Of a stretch of 64,000 nt of DNA, positions 9,530-42,257 are shown in pieces. Numbering within the stretch: position 1 is the first letter of the stretch; the number at the start of each line of letters is the position of its first letter. The translations under genes were made by a program, and so were the position numbers. A model generated the notes under the pieces. It saw only the letters and a program-made list of their open reading frames with translations, was not told the origin of the DNA and did no database searches. Origin of the DNA: Escherichia phage AV110; sequence record OR352940.1. One strand, given 5' to 3'.

Positions 9530-9850
9530 TCAATCTTCTATGATATCAGAGTCATATCCTAATGAAATCAAGGACTTTTTAAACTCTGCAATATTCTTTT
9601 GTTTCTTATCATTTAAAAATATGACAGGATAACGAATATTAAGTGAAGTGAATCCTGCACGTTTAGCAAGAGATACGATTAAAGGACGGTCATATTCAAT
9701 CTTACCATTGTTAGTGAGGACTTTATAAAATGTATAAGGAGCATTGAGCTCCTTTAAAAGTTTTGTAACAGTATAACATCCTGGACAACGTCCAACTTCT
9801 TCAGGGATGCCATAAACTTCAATTTTATTCTTTGGGTTCGAGTTTTGTTC
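9530..9850 (-). CDS. nrdH: Glutaredoxin-like protein (NrdH-like, CPGC redox motif); start codon uncertain
   Basis: C-terminal ~100 aa of ORF 9530..10027 carries EVYGIPEEVGRCPGCY; no in-frame ATG near the domain start, so GTG at 9848-9850 (AAGGA 10 nt upstream) or ATT at 9821-9823 proposed. Confidence 0.6.
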   Translation of the reverse strand, partial: EQNSNPKNKIEVYGIPEEVGRCPGCYTVTKLLKELNAPYTFYKVLTNNGKIEYDRPLIVSLAKRAGFTSLNIRYPVIFLNDKKQKNIAEFKKSLISLGYDSDIIED

Positions 9851-10136
9851 CACGAGAAATAATTCCTTGATAAGCCCAGTACGGCGGGTTAACAGAATCA
9901 TCACCAGAATTTTCTTCAGGGAAATAAACCTGAATAACGAATCCGGATTCGTCAAAGGTAAAATACACTGTAGGCAGTTCACCAAGCAATTCGGAACGAG
10001 CGTTAATTTCTTCGAGGTCTTGCTCACGTCCAGCCCAAAAACTAGGATTTAAACTACATTCGTAAAAATAATAGTCATTACCAAACATATCAAAACCCTT
10101 CCAACTCTCTACCACGTACCGCTCAAAACTAATCAT
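9825..10136 (-). CDS. Hypothetical protein
   Basis: 103-aa ORF. Confidence 0.5.
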   Translation of the reverse strand: MISFERYVVESWKGFDMFGNDYYFYECSLNPSFWAGREQDLEEINARSELLGELPTVYFTFDESGFVIQVYFPEENSGDDSVNPPYWAYQGIISRGTKLEPKE

Positions 10137-28439: not shown

Positions 28440-28684
28440 CCATGGCGCATGAATTGTCCATTTCTGTATTTACCCATTACCGCACTTGGGCTCGACCTTA
28501 TTACAGGTTGGCGGGAATCCCTCATAGAATCATGAGGTCCAGGTTGTTCCCATTTTATTTGAATGTAAATATTTTTGCCACGCGTTTACGAATTATACCA
28601 AAAAACACGTGGCAATTCACAGTATTCGGCGATTAAATGTTGATCAGCAAATTTAGATACTAAAGTCAAATTAATATAAGTCAT
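28440..28684 (-). pseudogene. Degraded partial copy of denV (N-terminal 32 codons in frame, then frameshifts and deletion)
   Basis: Hand translation [32 protein letters not shown] vs intact Den[29 protein letters not shown]; DNA alignment continues past the stop. Confidence 0.6.
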
Positions 28685-28740
28685 TTACCCATCCAAGTAA
28701 TTATGAATATACTATCACAATTCTAGGAGAAAGTAAACTG

Positions 28741-29043
28741 TTATTTACCTTTAATTACTTTAGCTGCTTCGATAGCCGCTTGCTGAAGGTCATCCATAGA
28801 CATACCGAATTTAGAAGCAAAGTTATCAATTTTCTTTTCGACAGCATTCAAAGGCTTGGCCTGTTTACCTTCATTAGCGCCAGGAAGAGCGAGAATACGC
28901 TCTTTGTCAATATAAAGGCTTACAAGTTTCTTACGGTCTTTATCGGACAAATCATGAAATGAATGGGCCTTTTTATTTATAGCGGCTTCTAATTTACCTG
29001 CACTCACTCGAGCTTCAGTAATAAATTCTTGATATGTTTTCAT
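28741..29043 (-). CDS. ipII: Internal protein II (capsid-targeted, MKTYQEF signal)
   Basis: 100-aa ORF matching remembered T4 IPII along its length. Confidence 0.8.
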   Translation of the reverse strand: MKTYQEFITEARVSAGKLEAAINKKAHSFHDLSDKDRKKLVSLYIDKERILALPGANEGKQAKPLNAVEKKIDNFASKFGMSMDDLQQAAIEAAKVIKGK

Positions 29044-29069
29044 TTTTGTTCCTATTGTTTTAATTTATG

Positions 29070-29384
29070 TTATTCTTTAGGGAAGTTTTTAGAGTATGCG
29101 TCATAAAGTTTATTACCGATGCGACGGAAAACTTTAGCTGCAAAACGGTTTTCAGGGTTTTTAATCATGATTTGCATCATGTAAGTTCCTGCATCCGAAA
29201 GAGCTTCTTCATAGTACCCATTAATTTCTTTAAGAGTCCTACGTTTACCACCAGGACCATCGACAGTAATTTTCCATTTACCTGTAGAAGTGCGGCTCGG
29301 TGGCTCAACTTGTTCAATCCAAATATAACCACCTTCAACGCGTTGGTTGGCGGATTCTGCAATAAATTCTTTATACGTTTTCAT
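29070..29384 (-). CDS. Internal protein with capsid-targeting signal (MKTYKEFIAE)
   Basis: 104-aa ORF; N-terminal 10 aa is the T4 capsid-targeting sequence, body unrelated to IPII. Confidence 0.65.
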   Translation of the reverse strand: MKTYKEFIAESANQRVEGGYIWIEQVEPPSRTSTGKWKITVDGPGGKRRTLKEINGYYEEALSDAGTYMMQIMIKNPENRFAAKVFRRIGNKLYDAYSKNFPKE

Positions 29385-29447
29385 TTTTGTTTCCTTGTTT
29401 GTTTTGATAGAGTAATTATACCATATTAATACTTAAGCGTAAACAAT

Positions 29448-29708
29448 TTAAGCTTTACCGCCAGAAATAATTCCGAAGTTGTTAAAATCGTATCCAATAT
29501 CGTCAACATCTACTTTAGGACTTGCTACAACATAAGCAATTTCACTACGTTTTGCATAGGTGTTGATTTCTTTACCATCGCCACCTAAGAAAGAATACCC
29601 ATTACGTTTTAATGAGCCAAAGTCTTCCGCATCACCAATGAAAGCTTTAACTTTAAATTTAGGACCTTTGGCATCTGCTTCAGCGATAAATTCTTGATAC
29701 ATTTTCAT
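29448..29708 (-). CDS. Internal protein with capsid-targeting signal (MKMYQEFIAE)
   Basis: 86-aa ORF with the same N-terminal signal. Confidence 0.65.
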   Translation of the reverse strand: MKMYQEFIAEADAKGPKFKVKAFIGDAEDFGSLKRNGYSFLGGDGKEINTYAKRSEIAYVVASPKVDVDDIGYDFNNFGIISGGKA

Positions 29709-29714
29709 TTTTCC

Positions 29715-30128
29715 TTAGTAAATTGATTTACCATAGTATTTGTACCAAGTCGGACGTTGAGCAATTTTTTCATCTAAGCGTGCTTGACTTATCGCAATGG
29801 ACGCTTCGGACGGGACATAATTATTACGAAATTCGGCAGGGATGTCGGAAATATCCTGGACAGTCGTGTCCTTGATTTTGAAACCACGTTTCAAGCATTC
29901 AGCGATTAGCTCGATTTGTCGTAAACGTAAAAATTCGAGTTTGTCGTAAAAGAATGTTACGTGACCTGTGCCTAAGATAAATGTTGGAGAGATTTTAAAA
30001 TCCTTTACACGTTTACCGTTTTGAACATGTTTACGGACTGCACCAAATACGCGTGGTAATTCACGATACTCAGCCATAAGATGTTGGTCGGCCAGTTCAG
30101 AAACAAGTGTTAAATTGATACGGGTCAT
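29715..30128 (-). CDS. denV: Endonuclease V (pyrimidine-dimer DNA glycosylase) DenV
   Basis: ORF track 29715..30140; start at MTRINLTLV (30128); matches remembered T4 DenV throughout. Confidence 0.92.
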
Positions 30129-30186
30129 AATTTCCTCCAAGTAGTTGATGAATGTATAGTATCAAAACCCTTGGAGGAAGTAAACA
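30129..30186 (-). promoter_or_regulatory. PeSL-type early promoter upstream of denV (arms TTCCTCCAAG/CTTGGAGGAA)
   Basis: Minus-strand reading GTTTACttcctccaagggttttgatactatacattcatcaactacttggaggaaattATG. Confidence 0.6.
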
Positions 30187-30468
30187 CTATTTTTCTGAAG
30201 CGCCTGAAATATATTTTTCAAGACGTTGTTTCATTAGCGAGCCGTTCTTAGCGATTTCTTCCGGTTTATCGCACATACGCAACAAGGCTTCAAGCTTAGC
30301 GATATCGCTGGTACGTTCAAATTTGCGAGTATCTATCTTACTAGCAAGTTCAGAAATACGTGCTAATAGACTTTCGGCTTCAACCAAAGCTGCACCTAGC
30401 TTAGTTGCAAATGTGTCAGTAGCTTCGTTAAGAATAGATTCTGATAAAAATTCACTATATGTTTTCAT
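30187..30468 (-). CDS. Internal-protein-like small protein ([11 protein letters not shown]-terminus)
   Basis: ORF track 30187..30483 trimmed to the MKTY start at 30468. Confidence 0.55.
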
Positions 30469-30953: not shown

Positions 30954-30987
30954 AATACCTCCCACGTTTATAGGAGGTATTTATTAC

Positions 30988-31446
30988 TTATAGGAGTTTA
31001 GTGAGCACCTTATATAATGATTTGCCCATTACATATTCCCATTGAGAAGGTTTAATTAAAGCGAATGCATCAAATTCAGGAATCTGTCGTCCGTCCGGGA
31101 ATGTATGATAGGAATTACAAACACTGTTTCTGAATTGCTCGTGCTCTACAGGGATGGTATATTGGAACAGATGAATATTCTTATTGTCTGAGTAATGATG
31201 TTCGCCTAGGTCTTTCAGGAAGGCAGGGTCATATTGTGTAAACCCAGTTTCTTCTTCGCATTCACGAATAGCGGCTTCGATAGGAGATTCGCCAGGTTCG
31301 ACACGGCCTTTAGGAATATCCCACCGATGAGCTAATGCACCTTTAGGACGAGAACCAGTTACACGCCCCATGAATAATTCTTTATCTTCGGTAAGGAAAA
31401 TAATACCGGCTGATAGTTCTTTCACTTTATTTTTCTTACTCATCAT
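30988..31446 (-). CDS. nudE: Nudix hydrolase NudE
   Basis: 152-aa ORF; Nudix box GRVEPGESPIEAAIRECEEETG. Confidence 0.85.
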   Translation of the reverse strand: MMSKKNKVKELSAGIIFLTEDKELFMGRVTGSRPKGALAHRWDIPKGRVEPGESPIEAAIRECEEETGFTQYDPAFLKDLGEHHYSDNKNIHLFQYTIPVEHEQFRNSVCNSYHTFPDGRQIPEFDAFALIKPSQWEYVMGKSLYKVLTKLL

Positions 31447-38321: not shown

Positions 38322-38416
38322 AACATTTTCCTCTATGGTTGATAAGTCTATAGTATCATGTCCTTAGAAGAAGTAAACATCTTTATGAAATATTTTTATG
38401 CCCTAGATACCAAAAG

Positions 38417-38438
38417 GCCCCAACCATAAGGAAGGGGC
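38417..38438 (-). terminator. Rho-independent terminator GCCCC-(12 nt)-GGGGC + CTTTTGG (repeat of 22863-22884)
   Basis: Same stem and loop sequence as the rI terminator, followed by a U-run. Confidence 0.6.
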
Positions 38439-38444
38439 ATTCTA

Positions 38445-38909
38445 TTATTTAATTTGTTTAGCAGACCAGATACGGTCTTTAATAAGTTTTTGGATATCTT
38501 CAACATACTCAAGGCTATGAGCGTGAGGATTATCTTTGAAGCTATGTGCTCGTGCCAGTTTCTGGCCTTCTGTTTTGATTACTAAAAGCTCTTTAAGAAT
38601 TGCTTCATACTTAGAAATAATTCCTTTGGCGATATTTTTTTCTTGAGTTGCTTTAGGGTCTGTTTTTGGCGCAGGTGCTTTACCTGTAGCTTTCTGGAAC
38701 AATTCACCTGATGCAGCTAGGCTTTTAAAAACTCGGCTAACAGTATTAGCATTAGTAAAACCTTCGGCTTTAAAATCTCTAATAAAACGGAAACGTTCTT
38801 CATCAGAGGCGTCTTTGTAAGAATATTTACCTGCTTGAATTGCTGCAATCGCAGCGGCTTTTACATCTGAACTAGATTGTTCAGTCAAAAATTCAGCGTA
38901 TGATTTCAT
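38445..38909 (-). CDS. Internal-protein-like protein with capsid-targeting signal (MKSYAEFLTE)
   Basis: 154-aa ORF; N-terminus resembles the capsid-targeting sequence; Ala/Lys-rich body. Confidence 0.6.
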   Translation of the reverse strand: MKSYAEFLTEQSSSDVKAAAIAAIQAGKYSYKDASDEERFRFIRDFKAEGFTNANTVSRVFKSLAASGELFQKATGKAPAPKTDPKATQEKNIAKGIISKYEAILKELLVIKTEGQKLARAHSFKDNPHAHSLEYVEDIQKLIKDRIWSAKQIK

Positions 38910-38957
38910 GTTGCTTTTCCTAAGTTAATTAACTTATCTATTTATTATTATGCCAAA

Positions 38958-38981
38958 AAGCCCCGACCTTTCGGAAGGGCT
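38958..38981 (-). terminator. Hairpin AGCCC-(13 nt)-GGGCT + TTTTTGG closing the tRNA/small-RNA transcription unit
   Basis: GC stem then U-run on the minus strand, between the RNA locus and the internal-protein gene. Confidence 0.55.
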
Positions 38982-39030
38982 AAGCCTTGCGGCAACCTTG
39001 TCGGGGTTCCACCTGCTAAGGCAAGTGTTT

Positions 39031-39125
39031 GTACGAAACGCCGGGATTTGAACCCGGTTATTAAGCAGTTGACGCTACTCAATATTTTTAAAAGGCCATA
39101 TCTCGACCATATCCGAACGTTCCGT
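39031..39125 (-). ncRNA. Putative small stable RNA with tRNA-like T-arm and acceptor stem (possible counterpart of T4 RNA C/D)
   Basis: Minus-strand CCGGG-TTCAAAT-CCCGG T-arm followed by a 7-nt strand complementary to CGGAACG about 85 nt upstream; no convincing D or anticodon arm; ~290 nt with no ORF. Confidence 0.3.
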
Positions 39126-39292
39126 CAAAAACGCTACTCGGCTTACGGCAAAGATATTTCCTCGAATCGATAATTCGGTGCGCCGTTTCTGCTGTGATGT
39201 AAGGGGATATTAATAAATCGTAAAGATTTATTAAGACCAGTCCTTACTCAGGGAACATCAGTCCGACGACTTGCCGGTAGCGACCCGGCTTC

Positions 39293-39661
39293 TTATTTTG
39301 GCATATCATCAATTTGCTCTCGACGCCGACGCCATAGATTAATCGCTTCATAAACACATTCAGCATTTGGTATATGACGACAATAGTATAGTGATTCGCG
39401 TTTCTGGAACCGATGTTGTAATGGAATTTCGTTTAAAAGGTCTTTACGGTCAAAGTATTCAAAACTAGTTAACCCGGAACGGTTTTTAAGAAACTTCCAA
39501 TGGCCAAATTCATTTTGGAAATAAACGTAATCGGCGTGTTGATATAACGAATTAATCAACCGGTCGGAAATAACTGTATCCTGTTCATTAAAATAAAACG
39601 TTAAATCATGAACTACCAAATAAATATTGCCTTTCATATTTTCCTCACAGTGGTATATCAA
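39293..39661 (-). CDS. Hypothetical protein within the tRNA region
   Basis: 122-aa ORF. Confidence 0.5.
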   Translation of the reverse strand: MIYHCEENMKGNIYLVVHDLTFYFNEQDTVISDRLINSLYQHADYVYFQNEFGHWKFLKNRSGLTSFEYFDRKDLLNEIPLQHRFQKRESLYYCRHIPNAECVYEAINLWRRRREQIDDMPK

Positions 39662-40178
39662 ATTTAGTAGATTTTGAATCTAATTTTCTAATTATAGAAT
39701 TTATATCATGGAAGAAAAACCATTCGCCGTTTACATGGTCAGATTCATAAATTGAATGTAAGTATTTTTCGAGTTCAACCGCATCTTGAGAATATCTAAA
39801 TGATAGTATTTTAAAACTTTTAAATGGAGAAAATGTATTTGCCGATAAAGCTCTTATATCAGGTTCTATACTTCTTCCTATTTTATAATAATTTGGATTT
39901 TTAGTGTCAGCCATTATATAAACAAATGCCTGACGGTGGCTTTTTTCTATATCAAACTCATCTTTAAATTTTAAGAGATTTAAAGCAGCAGTTCTACAAA
40001 ACACTCGCCAAATAGCTTGTTGTTTTGCTCTTGACTTTAAAAGAAAATTTTCTTTATCCACAATTTTAAGATAGGCCACCTTTTCGATAAGTTCTTTAGT
40101 CATTTCAAAATTATAATGACCAATTAAGCCTTTTTTAATAGCCAAATTAATTTGGTCCCAATCTACATCGCTTCTCAT
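39645..40178 (-). CDS. T5orf172-like (GIY-YIG superfamily) domain protein in the tRNA cluster
   Basis: ORF track 39645..40271 trimmed to MRSDVDWD at 40178 (longer form overlaps a tRNA-like gene); C-terminal VYIMADTKNPNYYKIGRS..LEKYLH..GEWFFF resembles the T5orf172 pattern. Confidence 0.5.
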   Translation of the reverse strand: MRSDVDWDQINLAIKKGLIGHYNFEMTKELIEKVAYLKIVDKENFLLKSRAKQQAIWRVFCRTAALNLLKFKDEFDIEKSHRQAFVYIMADTKNPNYYKIGRSIEPDIRALSANTFSPFKSFKILSFRYSQDAVELEKYLHSIYESDHVNGEWFFFHDINSIIRKLDSKSTKFDIPL

Positions 40179-40196
40179 AGTGTTATTCTCATAAAT

Positions 40197-40273
40197 TGGC
40201 CAGTGTGGAAGGATTCTAACCTTCAACCTACGGTTTAGAGGACCGCTGCTCTGTACATTTGAGCTACACACTG
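40197..40273 (-). tRNA. tRNA-like gene, anticodon TCT (Arg) by position, with atypical D-loop, T-loop and position 33
   Basis: Hand-folded cloverleaf: acceptor CAGTGTG/CACACTG, encoded CCA, anticodon stem GCGGT/ACCGT, loop CCTCTAA; D-loop lacks GG and T-loop is TTAGAAT. Confidence 0.5.
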
Positions 40274-41821: not shown

Positions 41822-41850
41822 TTTATTTCTCCATTTACTCATTTTGTTTT

Positions 41851-41890
41851 GATAGGACTACTATAACATAGTCCTATCGTGTTGTAAACT
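41851..41890 (-). promoter_or_regulatory. PeSL-type early promoter (perfect ATAGGACT/AGTCCTAT arms)
   Basis: Minus-strand reading GTTTACaacacGATAGGACTatgttatagtAGTCCTATC. Confidence 0.6.
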
Positions 41891-41892
41891 AC

Positions 41893-42180
41893 TTACAGAA
41901 GAGTTTTTGCAATAATTTTAAGCTGAGCTACAGAAATATGCTTAGCTTTAAACAGTGCAGTCTCTTCAGCCGGAGAGATAACAATAGTAGCGCCATCTTT
42001 CTTAGCAGACCATCCGTCCCCTAAGTAAACAGTACCTTTTACTTCTTCACCGTCAACCAGACTAATCATTGGTTTACCCTCACGTCCTTTATTTGCTTTA
42101 ATAACTTCGGAAGTAAGGGTTGCTTCGGTTAGAGTAGAAACGTTAGCATCAGGTGATATAAATTCTTTATAGGTTTTCAT
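41893..42180 (-). CDS. Internal protein with capsid-targeting signal (MKTYKEFISP)
   Basis: 95-aa ORF with the conserved N-terminal signal. Confidence 0.6.
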   Translation of the reverse strand: MKTYKEFISPDANVSTLTEATLTSEVIKANKGREGKPMISLVDGEEVKGTVYLGDGWSAKKDGATIVISPAEETALFKAKHISVAQLKIIAKTLL

Positions 42181-42257
42181 TTTATTTCCTTGAGGTCGTT
42201 TATTTGATAGAATGATAGTAACACACCATCATCCTTATGTAAACTGTTTTGTGAAAA

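Follow-up and report, generated by a model that had tools for sequence, protein, structure and literature searches.

Six capsid-targeting-sequence genes in an RB69-like T-even phage form a probable internal-protein set with one widely conserved candidate member

How many internal proteins does a T-even phage place in its head together with its DNA, and do they serve against host defences? Internal proteins (Ips) are the first phage molecules met by host immunity, and the T4 internal proteins and their capsid-targeting sequence (CTS) have reportedly been characterized by Mullaney & Black (1996) and by Bair, Rifat & Black (2007). We analyzed a 64,000-nucleotide stretch of Escherichia phage AV110 (OR352940.1; hereafter the window), which is 98–99% identical to Mosigvirus genomes and derives from an RB69/JS09/ST0-like T-even phage. 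An initial annotation, made from the sequence alone, had pointed to six open reading frames (ORFs) with a T4-type CTS, and all six were recovered at its coordinates, all on the minus strand (O1 to O6; Table 1). The evidence presented here makes it highly probable that these genes are the CTS internal-protein set of an RB69-like T-even phage.

The six ORFs open with MK[TSM]Y.EF[IL], for which about 0.003 matches are expected by chance. A six-frame scan of the window with MK.Y.EF[ILVM] returned six matches, exactly O1 to O6, against an analytic expectation of 0.0028 per window and 0 matches in shuffled windows (n = 300). The consensus proposed initially, MKTY[QK]EF[IL], describes O1, O2, and O6 and is too narrow for O3 (MKMYQEFIAE), O4, and O5 (MKSYAEFLTE). 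Tyr4, Phe7, and Ile/Leu8 are kept in 6/6 ORFs and Glu10 in 5/6, the exception being O6, which has Pro10 but carries LTE at residues 17–19, like T4 IpI. According to a suppressor analysis, CTS residues 4 and 7 govern targeting, and residues 8 and 10 govern processing (PMC9026906). Cleavage sites for the gp21 protease, whose specificity is known from the literature, were predicted as motif matches (L/I-x-E at residues 8–10, or at 17–19 in the IpI type), and end at residue 10 in O1 (ITE), O2 and O3 (both IAE), O4 (LSE), and O5 (LTE). Genes 21 and 22, which encode the gp21 protease and the gp22 scaffolding core, are core genes of T4-related phages (PMC9026906) and have positions outside the 64-kb window. 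A loose CTS scan also returned a candidate at 9825–10136 (MISFERYVVE); it lacks K2, E6, and F7, belongs to an unrelated PHROG, and is probably a chance match.

Table 1 Features of the window in order of position; a solidus marks a predicted cleavage point
Feature	Position	Strand	Description
Second denV promoter element and denV 5′ remnant	28601..28737	-	Downstream of O1; direct repeat, 81%
O1	28741..29043	-	IpII orthologue, 100 aa, MKTYQEFITE/A
O2	29070..29384	-	Ip10-family internal protein, 104 aa, MKTYKEFIAE/S
Early (sigma-70 type) promoter of O2	29415..29443	-	TTTACG-N17-TATAAT, TG before -10 box; 10/12 consensus
O3	29448..29708	-	RB69ORF125c-family internal head protein, 86 aa, MKMYQEFIAE/A
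denV (endonuclease V)	29715..30128	-	Not an internal protein; embedded in the cluster; annotation of ST0, RB69, phi25-307
Promoter and stem-loop serving denV	30132..30184	-	Downstream of O4; fold -19.1 kcal/mol, z = -3.97
O4	30187..30468	-	Ip5-like internal head protein, 93 aa; residue 10, then /SILNE/A
Terminator hairpin, downstream copy flanking O5	38407..38436	-	Direct repeat of 38950–38979
O5	38445..38909	-	Candidate internal protein, RB32ORF133c / fD1 g140 family, 154 aa, MKSYAEFLTE/Q
Late-promoter-like AATAAATA	38939..38946	-	30 nt upstream of O5, where homologues have TATAAATA
rnaC-type terminator hairpin, upstream copy flanking O5	38950..38979	-	30-nt direct repeat, 80% identical to 38407–38436
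Promoter and stem-loop downstream of O6	41843..41888	-	GTTTAC..TATAGT, 11-bp hairpin, z = -5.53; serves next gene
O6	41893..42180	-	IpI orthologue, 95 aa; predicted mature IPI* = residues 20–95, after LTE19
Early promoter of O6	42215..42243	-	GTTTAC...TACTAT, directly upstream; hairpin across -10 region, fold z = -2.63

The reading of these genes as an internal-protein set is supported by the fact that five of the six ORFs fall in families already named internal head or virion proteins. O1, initially described as IPII-like, is indeed 93% identical to T4 IpII across 100/100 residues and matches phrog_7857 (“internal virion protein”; E = 4.5e-55). O6 is 88% identical to T4 IpI and matches both Pfam PF11634 (IPI_T4; E = 1.4e-50, 169.6 bits against a cut-off of 25), with residues 20–95 on profile positions 1–76/76, and PDB 2JUB (E = 6e-42), where the same residues correspond to chain positions 1–76, i.e., mature IPI* exactly from residue 20. 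O3 matches phrog_2667 (“internal head protein”; E = 7e-21) and is 95% identical to the RB69 protein of that name, while O4 matches phrog_3499 (“internal head protein”; E = 2e-46) and shares 48–51% identity over 90% of its length with ip5 of T2, PP01, and AR1, which sits in the ipI locus and not, like O4, next to gene e. Relatives of both O3 and O4 are annotated as internal head proteins in RefSeq. O2 shares 96% identity with PP01 ip10 and 72% with Ip10 of VR20, VR25, and SP18, and belongs to phrog_3966, which has no assigned function. PHROG coverage of the ORFs was 1-100/100, 1-112/117, 1-85/85, 1-172/178, and 1-92/92. IpIII is absent from the window, and a search for a diverged copy gave matches of CTS length only. 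That these particular proteins are packaged and processed is predicted from their sequences.

Behind the shared start, the bodies of the proteins had been called unrelated. BLASTP bears this out, as body-only comparisons gave no pair with E < 0.02; a weak exception is O5, which resembles IpII as far as residue 41 or so (hhalign, E = 4e-5, probability 69.7%). Searches for function with O2–O5 gave no sequence or fold match to known inhibitors, no matches in NCBIfam, sub-threshold noise only in Pfam (DUF7412, CsgH, and Dimeth_PyL), and one chance-level match in PADLOC. A PDB sequence search with O1, O3, O4, and O5 was empty, and an AlphaFold2 model of O2, built on an alignment of 3 sequences, was unusable (pLDDT 46.8). 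A literature search on Ip10 and Ip5 returned unrelated papers only, and Ips are not discussed in Petrov 2010.

The sixth ORF, O5, matches 511 phage records from several genera and belongs to a family found in most sequenced T-even coliphages. It is “hypothetical” in all of the 40 records sampled from the 511, none of which uses an Ip name; its PHROG, phrog_2280, has no function, and no mention of “RB32ORF133c” was found in the literature. In all homologues compared, the most distant at 34% identity, an aromatic residue stands at the equivalent of T4 CTS Tyr4 and I/L-x-E is kept. A hydrophobic residue stands at the Phe7 equivalent in all except a MKFKEFLAE form, whose register is shifted by the deletion of one residue; the residues beside these conserved positions vary. 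Homologues from Tequatrovirus start MKSYAQFLNEAVLNEA, close to the first 16 residues of O4. An exact TATAAATA late promoter precedes the homologues in RB32, Klebsiella phage M198, and fD1, which represent three genera, and the AATAAATA variant found before O5 also precedes the late gene e, at 30978–30985. At the site where two terminator copies flank O5, T4 has a single copy and no gene, and the RB32 record annotates its homologue as “flanked by 34 bp imperfect direct repeat”. LC-MS/MS placed g140, the homologue in fD1, on a permissive list of particle-associated proteins that also contains g129, another CTS protein (PMC8309999 Table S3); since DenV, lysozyme, and NudE are on the list as well, it argues weakly for O5.

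On the basis of these sequence features we lean towards O5 being a CTS internal-protein gene. Its start could be read otherwise, namely as that of a late cytoplasmic protein which acquired a CTS-like beginning by descent from, or recombination with, an Ip gene and is neither targeted nor cleaved. To the missing Ip name and PHROG function can be added that MKSYAEFLTE is the most divergent CTS of the six, that one Klebsiella-phage homologue starts MITFNDILAE, without K2 and with Ile at position 7, that the conservation of the family is far above that of typical Ips, and that its virion evidence comes from the permissive fD1 list alone. What makes a cytoplasmic role somewhat unlikely is the persistence of the Tyr4-equivalent aromatic and of I/L-x-E in every homologue compared, with a hydrophobic Phe7 equivalent save in MKFKEFLAE, along with a canonical late promoter in three genera, which would time expression as suits a component of the head, a likeness to IpII that reaches past the CTS, and an N-terminus much like the one of the Ip5-like O4.

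Taken as a candidate internal protein, O5 appears to be modular, with an N-terminal helical domain, a Pro/Lys-rich linker, and a C-terminal helical module. Residues 11–70 are conserved among T4-like phages of Escherichia, Yersinia, Klebsiella, and Serratia and have a distant relationship with the beginning of IpII, and the C-terminal helical module differs from genus to genus. This layout may be the pattern expected of an effector that joins a constant handle to a swappable target-binding part. In a Foldseek search against BFVD, the structure model (pLDDT 72.9) matched only members of its own family and an uncharacterised protein of Serratia phage PS2. The family is also narrow, since HMMER, run against 1.8 billion representatives, recovered only 9 relatives (8 with a word-indexed search). 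The fuller reading, in which O5 is an unrecognised, widely conserved injected protein encoded at a third locus by a late-promoter cassette inserted in the rnaC terminator, is in our judgment evenly balanced. Its wide rather than patchy conservation is unlike that of a fast-turnover anti-defence effector, and the description of the six genes as a diversifying set does not suit O5, which behaves more as a conserved gene would.

How such proteins would act can be proposed in four steps. Tyr4 and Phe7 of the approximately 10-residue CTS would bind the gp22 scaffolding core during prohead assembly; gp21 would then cleave after the Glu of I/L-x-E, at residue 10 (residue 19 in IpI), leaving the mature protein free in the head; the mature protein would be ejected into the cell together with the DNA; and there it would act stoichiometrically and at once on first-line defences. 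The main proposed targets are GmrSD-family type IV nucleases, which attack glycosylated hydroxymethylcytosine (hmC) DNA. Each of T4 Ip1, Ip2, and Ip3 inhibits a different GmrSD type IV nuclease (Silas 2025; PMC12373910), and RB69 IpI blocks restriction by GmrSD-family enzymes (PMC6024577). The DNA sugar of Mosigviruses is arabinose and that of T4 glucose, i.e., arabinosyl-hmC instead of glucosyl-hmC (PMC6024577), so the Ips here may have other targets than the T4 Ips. By family match, O6 is a putative IpI/IPI*-type GmrSD inhibitor. For O2–O5, an anti-defence role could go either way, and the targets proposed for them are predictions.

The same proteins could instead be packaged in a mainly structural capacity, as basic DNA-associated proteins that neutralise charge and aid the packaging or ejection of DNA. 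Mature O1, O2, and O5 are basic (pI 9.6–9.7), like T4 IpII and IpIII, and, according to the T4 head review, internal-protein lysines touch the phosphates of the DNA and may make packaging faster (PMC3012670); O3, O4, and O6, however, are near neutral (pI 6.3–6.8), and both unrelated folds and cassette turnover would be superfluous for charge neutralisation. T4 Ip1–3 are moreover dispensable on laboratory hosts, yet each rescues infection of one particular GmrSD host, and does so without the CTS as well when expressed in the cell (PMC9391042, PMC12373910). We therefore consider a mainly structural function improbable. The initial core reading, that of a CTS-targeted and injected internal-protein set larger than the three of T4 and plausibly anti-defence, is supported, except for its treatment of O5 as part of a diversifying set and for its account of the promoters.

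That account gave each gene a stem-loop promoter of its own, whereas an early promoter lies directly upstream of O2 and O6 only. The window contains six GTTTAC-N17/18-TAnnnT elements, of which two precede these Ip genes; the other four, downstream of O1, O4, O5, and O6, serve whichever gene follows. No significant stem-loop was found near the O2 promoter (fold z = -0.65). The O4 ATG overlaps the e stop codon (ATGA), O3 starts 6 nt past the denV stop, and O1 is preceded by a 26-nt unstructured spacer, all three genes being without a promoter element of their own. Shine-Dalgarno-like sequences are present in front of all six ORFs. In the element serving denV, which folds better than its shuffles (0/200 folded as well), the -10 box is enclosed by a 10-bp stem whose 3′ arm extends over the Shine-Dalgarno sequence of denV. 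No exact TATAAATA late promoter precedes O1–O4 or O6, the only nearby copy lying within O1, and T4 ipI, ipII, and ipIII likewise have no exact TATAAATA in front. An Rfam scan returned two tRNAs only and no family for rnaC/rnaD-like RNAs. In the transcription units that we infer, e-O4-denV-O3-O2-O1 would form one co-directional unit, in which late transcription probably starts at promoters upstream of e and early transcription at those of denV and O2; O5 would be a separate late cassette, and O6 would use its own early promoter.

Related Mosigviruses differ at the e/denV locus by whole Ip cassettes. Between flanks that are >97% identical, phi25-307 carries 5, this window and ST0 carry 4, and Shf125875, which lacks O2, carries 3. 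The CTS-coding 5′ end is a 32-nt direct repeat present in four copies (81–84% identity). Downstream of O1, a copy of the denV promoter element (28709–28737) is followed by a denV 5′ remnant of 28 codons (28601–28684), 23/28 residues of which are identical to the denV N-terminus (tblastn, E = 2e-13). The 32-nt 5′ ends and the flanking promoter or terminator hairpins may act as recombination handles, at which single cassettes would be inserted, deleted, or swapped. That some of the CTS ORFs are themselves decaying, silent, or non-functional leftovers of such shuffling would agree with this debris and with the lack of own promoters for O1, O3, and O4, but is very improbable given that each of the six ORFs is intact and spans the full length typical of its family, that their proteins are 95–100% conserved in dozens of independent isolates, and that all have Shine-Dalgarno-like sequences, with a co-directional block readable from upstream promoters as in T4 ipII/ipIII.

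Compared with the IpI, IpII, and IpIII genes of T4, the probable internal-protein set described here shares the CTS with Y4, F7, and I/L8-x-E10, the two loci (e-denV and 57B-tRNA) with their orthologues O1 and O6, the gene orientation, and the predicted dependence on promoters upstream of e. This phage differs in having four further CTS genes and no IpIII, and denV lies within its Ip cluster but after the cluster in T4. Polymorphic CTS-bearing Ip genes, with at least 10 Ips, are attributed to Repoila et al. 1994 (EMBO J 13:4181) where that work is cited in PMC12373910, PMC9026906, and PMC3012670. As in these Ip4–Ip13 type genes, unrelated bodies stand behind a conserved CTS and 5′ DNA segment and vary in presence among close relatives; O2 corresponds to Ip10, whereas O4, at about 50% identity to Ip5, lies beside e instead of ipI, and O5 occupies a third site, the rnaC terminator. 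The phenomenon is thus already published, and RefSeq annotation and the literature already cover most of the families. The new point is modest: a family that is “hypothetical” in all sampled records, and likely packaged, is flagged as a candidate internal protein. A phage with six Ips would offer four or five further candidate nuclease inhibitors, which in an arabinosyl-hmC phage may act on type IV enzymes of different sugar specificity, and such candidates could be of use in predicting host range for phage therapy and in the search for new nuclease inhibitors.

P1 DarA/DarB and T7 Ocr share with these Ips the concept of a protein that protects at, or right after, DNA entry, and have no sequence relationship to them. 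T7 Ocr is made after entry and is not injected, and the Dar proteins follow a different incorporation pathway. The layout of the loci also resembles the promoter-early stem-loop (PeSL) cassettes reportedly described by Arbiol et al. (2010) and Comeau et al. (2014), with TTTACW-N17-TAYWAT early promoters and hairpins at cassette boundaries in hyperplastic regions. No mini-circle or recombination event was seen in this sequence, and instead of one element per Ip gene, only two of the six elements precede Ips. Duplicated copies of the promoter element flank denV-O3-O2-O1, duplicated terminators flank O5, and several of the hairpins overlap a promoter and a Shine-Dalgarno sequence rather than being placed upstream as terminators.

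A six-frame scan of the window with the pattern MK.Y.EF[ILVM] recovered O1 to O6, the six ORFs with a T4-type capsid targeting sequence (CTS) at their N-terminus, and no others (chance expectation 0.0028 per window; 0 matches in 300 shuffles). The ORF list of the initial annotation is therefore borne out, with all six members on the minus strand, although the literal motif given there, MKTY[QK]EF[IL], fits only three of them. Residues 4 and 7 of the CTS control targeting and residues 8 and 10 control processing (PMC9026906). Y4, F7 and I/L8 are present in all six ORFs and E10 in five, while O6 lacks E10 and carries LTE at residues 17-19, the same as T4 IpI. In nucleotide sequence, O1, O2, O3 and O4 share a 32-nt 5' end that forms a direct-repeat family with 81-84% identity. 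A 103-aa ORF of phrog_2749 has an aromatic residue at position 4, Y at 7, V at 8 and E at 10, but its likeness to a CTS is probably due to chance, since K2, E6 and F7 are missing.

Positions of the CTS-bearing ORFs and associated features in the window
Feature	Position	Strand	Detail
O1	28741-29043	-	MKTYQEFITE
O2	29070-29384	-	MKTYKEFIAE
O3	29448-29708	-	MKMYQEFIAE
O4	30187-30468	-	T4-type CTS
O5	38445-38909	-	MKSYAEFLTE
O6	41893-42180	-	MKTYKEFISP...LTE19
CTS-like ORF	9825-10136	-	MISFERYVVE
Early promoter upstream of O2	29415-29443	-	10/12 consensus positions; hairpin not significant, z = -0.65
Early promoter upstream of O6	42215-42243	-	hairpin z about -2.6
Early promoters downstream of O4, O1, O5, O6			serve denV, a denV remnant, two unrelated genes
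denV 5' remnant	within 28601-28737	-	28 codons
denV hairpin	30132-30184	-	10 bp, z = -3.97
Similar layout after O5	~38325-38377
Exact late box within O1	28974-28981	-	TATAAATA
Late-box variants before e	30978-30992	-	TATAAGTA and AATAAATA
Repeat flanking O5	38407-38436, 38950-38979		30 nt
rnaC/rnaD-like RNAs	~38950-39215	-
ORF in segB position	39645-40271	-	GTG start
tRNA-Arg	40197-40273

Sequence comparisons place most of these genes in known internal protein (Ip) families. O6 is assigned as the IpI orthologue: it is 88% identical to T4 IpI, its residues 20-95 align to the whole 76-residue Pfam IPI_T4 model (E 1.4e-50), and the alignment to mature IPI* as solved by NMR (2JUB) likewise starts at residue 20. 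O1 is assigned as IpII (93% identical to T4 IpII) and O2 to the Ip10 family, which carries that name in PP01, VR20, VR25 and SP18 and has no function given in PHROGs. O3 (phrog_2667) and O4 (phrog_3499) both belong to families annotated as internal head protein; O3 is 95% identical to an RB69 gene with that annotation, and O4 is approximately 50% identical to ip5 of T2, PP01 and AR1, which sits in the other Ip locus. IpIII is absent from the window, where only CTS-length matches to it were found. The protein bodies are unrelated at the sequence level, as initially proposed, because no body-only pair reaches E < 0.02 in BLASTP with the first 12 residues removed.

Families already labelled as internal proteins thus cover five of the six genes. 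A conserved CTS preceding unrelated, polymorphic, injected T-even proteins was reportedly described in 1994 by Repoila, and reviews and a functional study from 2025 describe the phenomenon again. Together, the earlier description and the existing labels mean that the Ip set, while real and mostly rightly interpreted in the initial annotation, was already known.

The residual interest lies in O5, the only one of the six without an existing internal-protein annotation. O5 matches 511 phage records from Escherichia, Shigella, Yersinia, Klebsiella, Citrobacter and Salmonella phages, is "hypothetical" in all 40 records sampled across the ranking of these matches, and belongs to a PHROG with no function. 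The N-terminal pattern of the family is kept down to 34% identity although adjoining residues vary: MKSYAQFLNEAVLNEA in RB32 and Yersinia phage fD1, MKFKEFLAE and MITFNDILAE in Klebsiella phages, and MLKFNEFLAE and MLEYSEFLKE in metagenomic relatives. The Tequatrovirus O5 N-terminus resembles that of O4, including the double L-x-E, and in a profile comparison the family and IpII align over 41 columns, extending past the CTS (hhalign 69.7%, E 4e-5). The fD1 homologue, g140, is listed among particle-associated proteins (PMC8309999 Table S3), but this is weak evidence because the list also takes in DenV, lysozyme and NudE. An AlphaFold2 model (pLDDT 72.9) predicts that residues 11-70 form a small helical N-domain, joined by a Pro/Lys-rich linker to a long helical hairpin. 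The N-domain is conserved between genera, whereas coliphage and Klebsiella-phage versions have different C-terminal halves; searches for O5 gave no fold or family match pointing to an activity.

The surroundings of O5 resemble a cassette. Its homologues in RB32, fD1 and Klebsiella phage M198 are preceded by an exact T4 late promoter, TATAAATA, which directly follows the upstream terminator and lies ~40 nt from the ATG. At this position the window has the variant AATAAATA, which also precedes the undisputed late gene e. An imperfect direct repeat (80% identical) flanks O5 and represents a duplication of the rnaC-type terminator hairpin; at the corresponding site, T4 carries one such hairpin and lacks a gene. 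A direct repeat flanking the homologue had been recorded by the RB32 annotators. We read O5 as an unannotated, conserved late cassette that probably encodes a further internal protein.

For T4 it is established that the proteins enter the prohead core by way of the CTS, are cut by gp21 after L/I-x-E and are ejected with the DNA (PMC9026906, PMC3012670). Each of Ip1, Ip2 and Ip3 inhibits a single GmrSD-type type IV nuclease, without cross-protection (PMC12373910), and Ip3 is active in the cytoplasm even when it lacks the CTS (PMC9391042). RB69, whose DNA contains arabinosyl-hmC, encodes an IpI with 4 residues unlike those of T4 that prevents its restriction by GmrSD and related enzymes (PMC6024577). 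Motif and orthology evidence for the window genes is direct; for O2 to O5, packaging, processing and targets are inferred. The basic members O1, O2 and O5 (pI about 9.6) may act structurally or in charge neutralization, but such a role would leave both the near-neutral members and the cassette turnover unexplained.

The 2-kb stretch around the Ip cluster is 98-99% identical to genomes of the RB69-related Mosigviruses AlbertHofmann, SA79RD, ST0 and JS09. T4-map gene order is kept (vs.8/denV to e, nudE, e.2-e.8, stable RNAs and tRNAs, then ipI, 57B, 57A and gene 1), and transcription in this region is on the minus strand throughout. Among Mosigviruses with flanks >97% identical, phi25-307 carries e, Ip5-like, denV, O3-type, Ip10, IpIII and IpII; ST0 and the window lack IpIII, and Shf125875 lacks both IpIII and Ip10. 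In T4 denV follows ipII, whereas in the window it lies between O4 and O3. A denV 5' remnant with 82% identity to the N-terminus of intact denV lies downstream of O1 and is preceded by another copy of the denV early-promoter element. As this is the T4 position of denV, recombination has rearranged the locus. The obvious substrates for recombination are the CTS-coding repeat and the duplicated promoter and terminator hairpins. Recombination via repeated segments was reportedly proposed for Ip genes by Repoila in 1994. The PeSL papers likewise proposed recombination at such repeats (Arbiol 2010, Comeau 2014). Yersinia phage fD1 has zero Ip genes between e and denV. Directly downstream of its denV, g129 (L009 186-659, minus strand; 157 aa, MKTYQEFITE) is a "protein of unknown function" in GenBank and a particle-associated "Head protein" in PMC8309999 Table S3, and represents a further Ip family missing from the window.

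The proposal that each Ip gene has its own stem-loop promoter needs correction. T4-type early promoters (GTTTAC-N17/18-TAnnnT) occur in six places, of which only two are upstream of Ip genes (O2 and O6), and the strongest hairpins are in downstream elements (z = -3.97 after O4, about -5.5 after O6). The e stop codon and O4 ATG overlap (ATGA), the denV stop is 6 nt from the O3 start, and the 26-nt spacer from O2 to O1 is unstructured. These promoter/stem-loop elements, which resemble PeSL cassettes (Arbiol 2010, Comeau 2014), mark cluster boundaries rather than single genes. In the likely co-directional block e-O4-denV-O3-O2-O1, late transcription would start upstream of e and early transcription at the denV and O2 promoters; T4 ipIII and ipII likewise lack an exact late promoter of their own and lie downstream of two TATAAATA boxes before e.

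Before e in the window, TATAAGTA and AATAAATA stand in for these two exact boxes, which suggests that late-promoter variants are tolerated in this phage lineage; the conserved hairpin covering the ribosome site of e is retained. The sole exact box of the e-denV region, within the O1 coding sequence, may drive late transcription of genes downstream or be a chance match. The 3' arm of the denV hairpin holds the denV Shine-Dalgarno sequence and its 5' arm lies between the -35 and -10 boxes of the denV early promoter, such that e/O4 read-through transcripts would mask the ribosome site and promoter-initiated transcripts would not, an arrangement resembling that known for gene e of T4. O5 is followed by a similar layout. 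Near-copies of rnaC and rnaD, the small stable RNAs of T4 (species 1 and 2), are present and match no Rfam family at the gathering threshold. The ORF that takes the segB position gives weak GIY-YIG/homing-endonuclease matches (phrog_5032, from residue 32), and its true start is probably internal, as the listed GTG overlaps tRNA-Arg.
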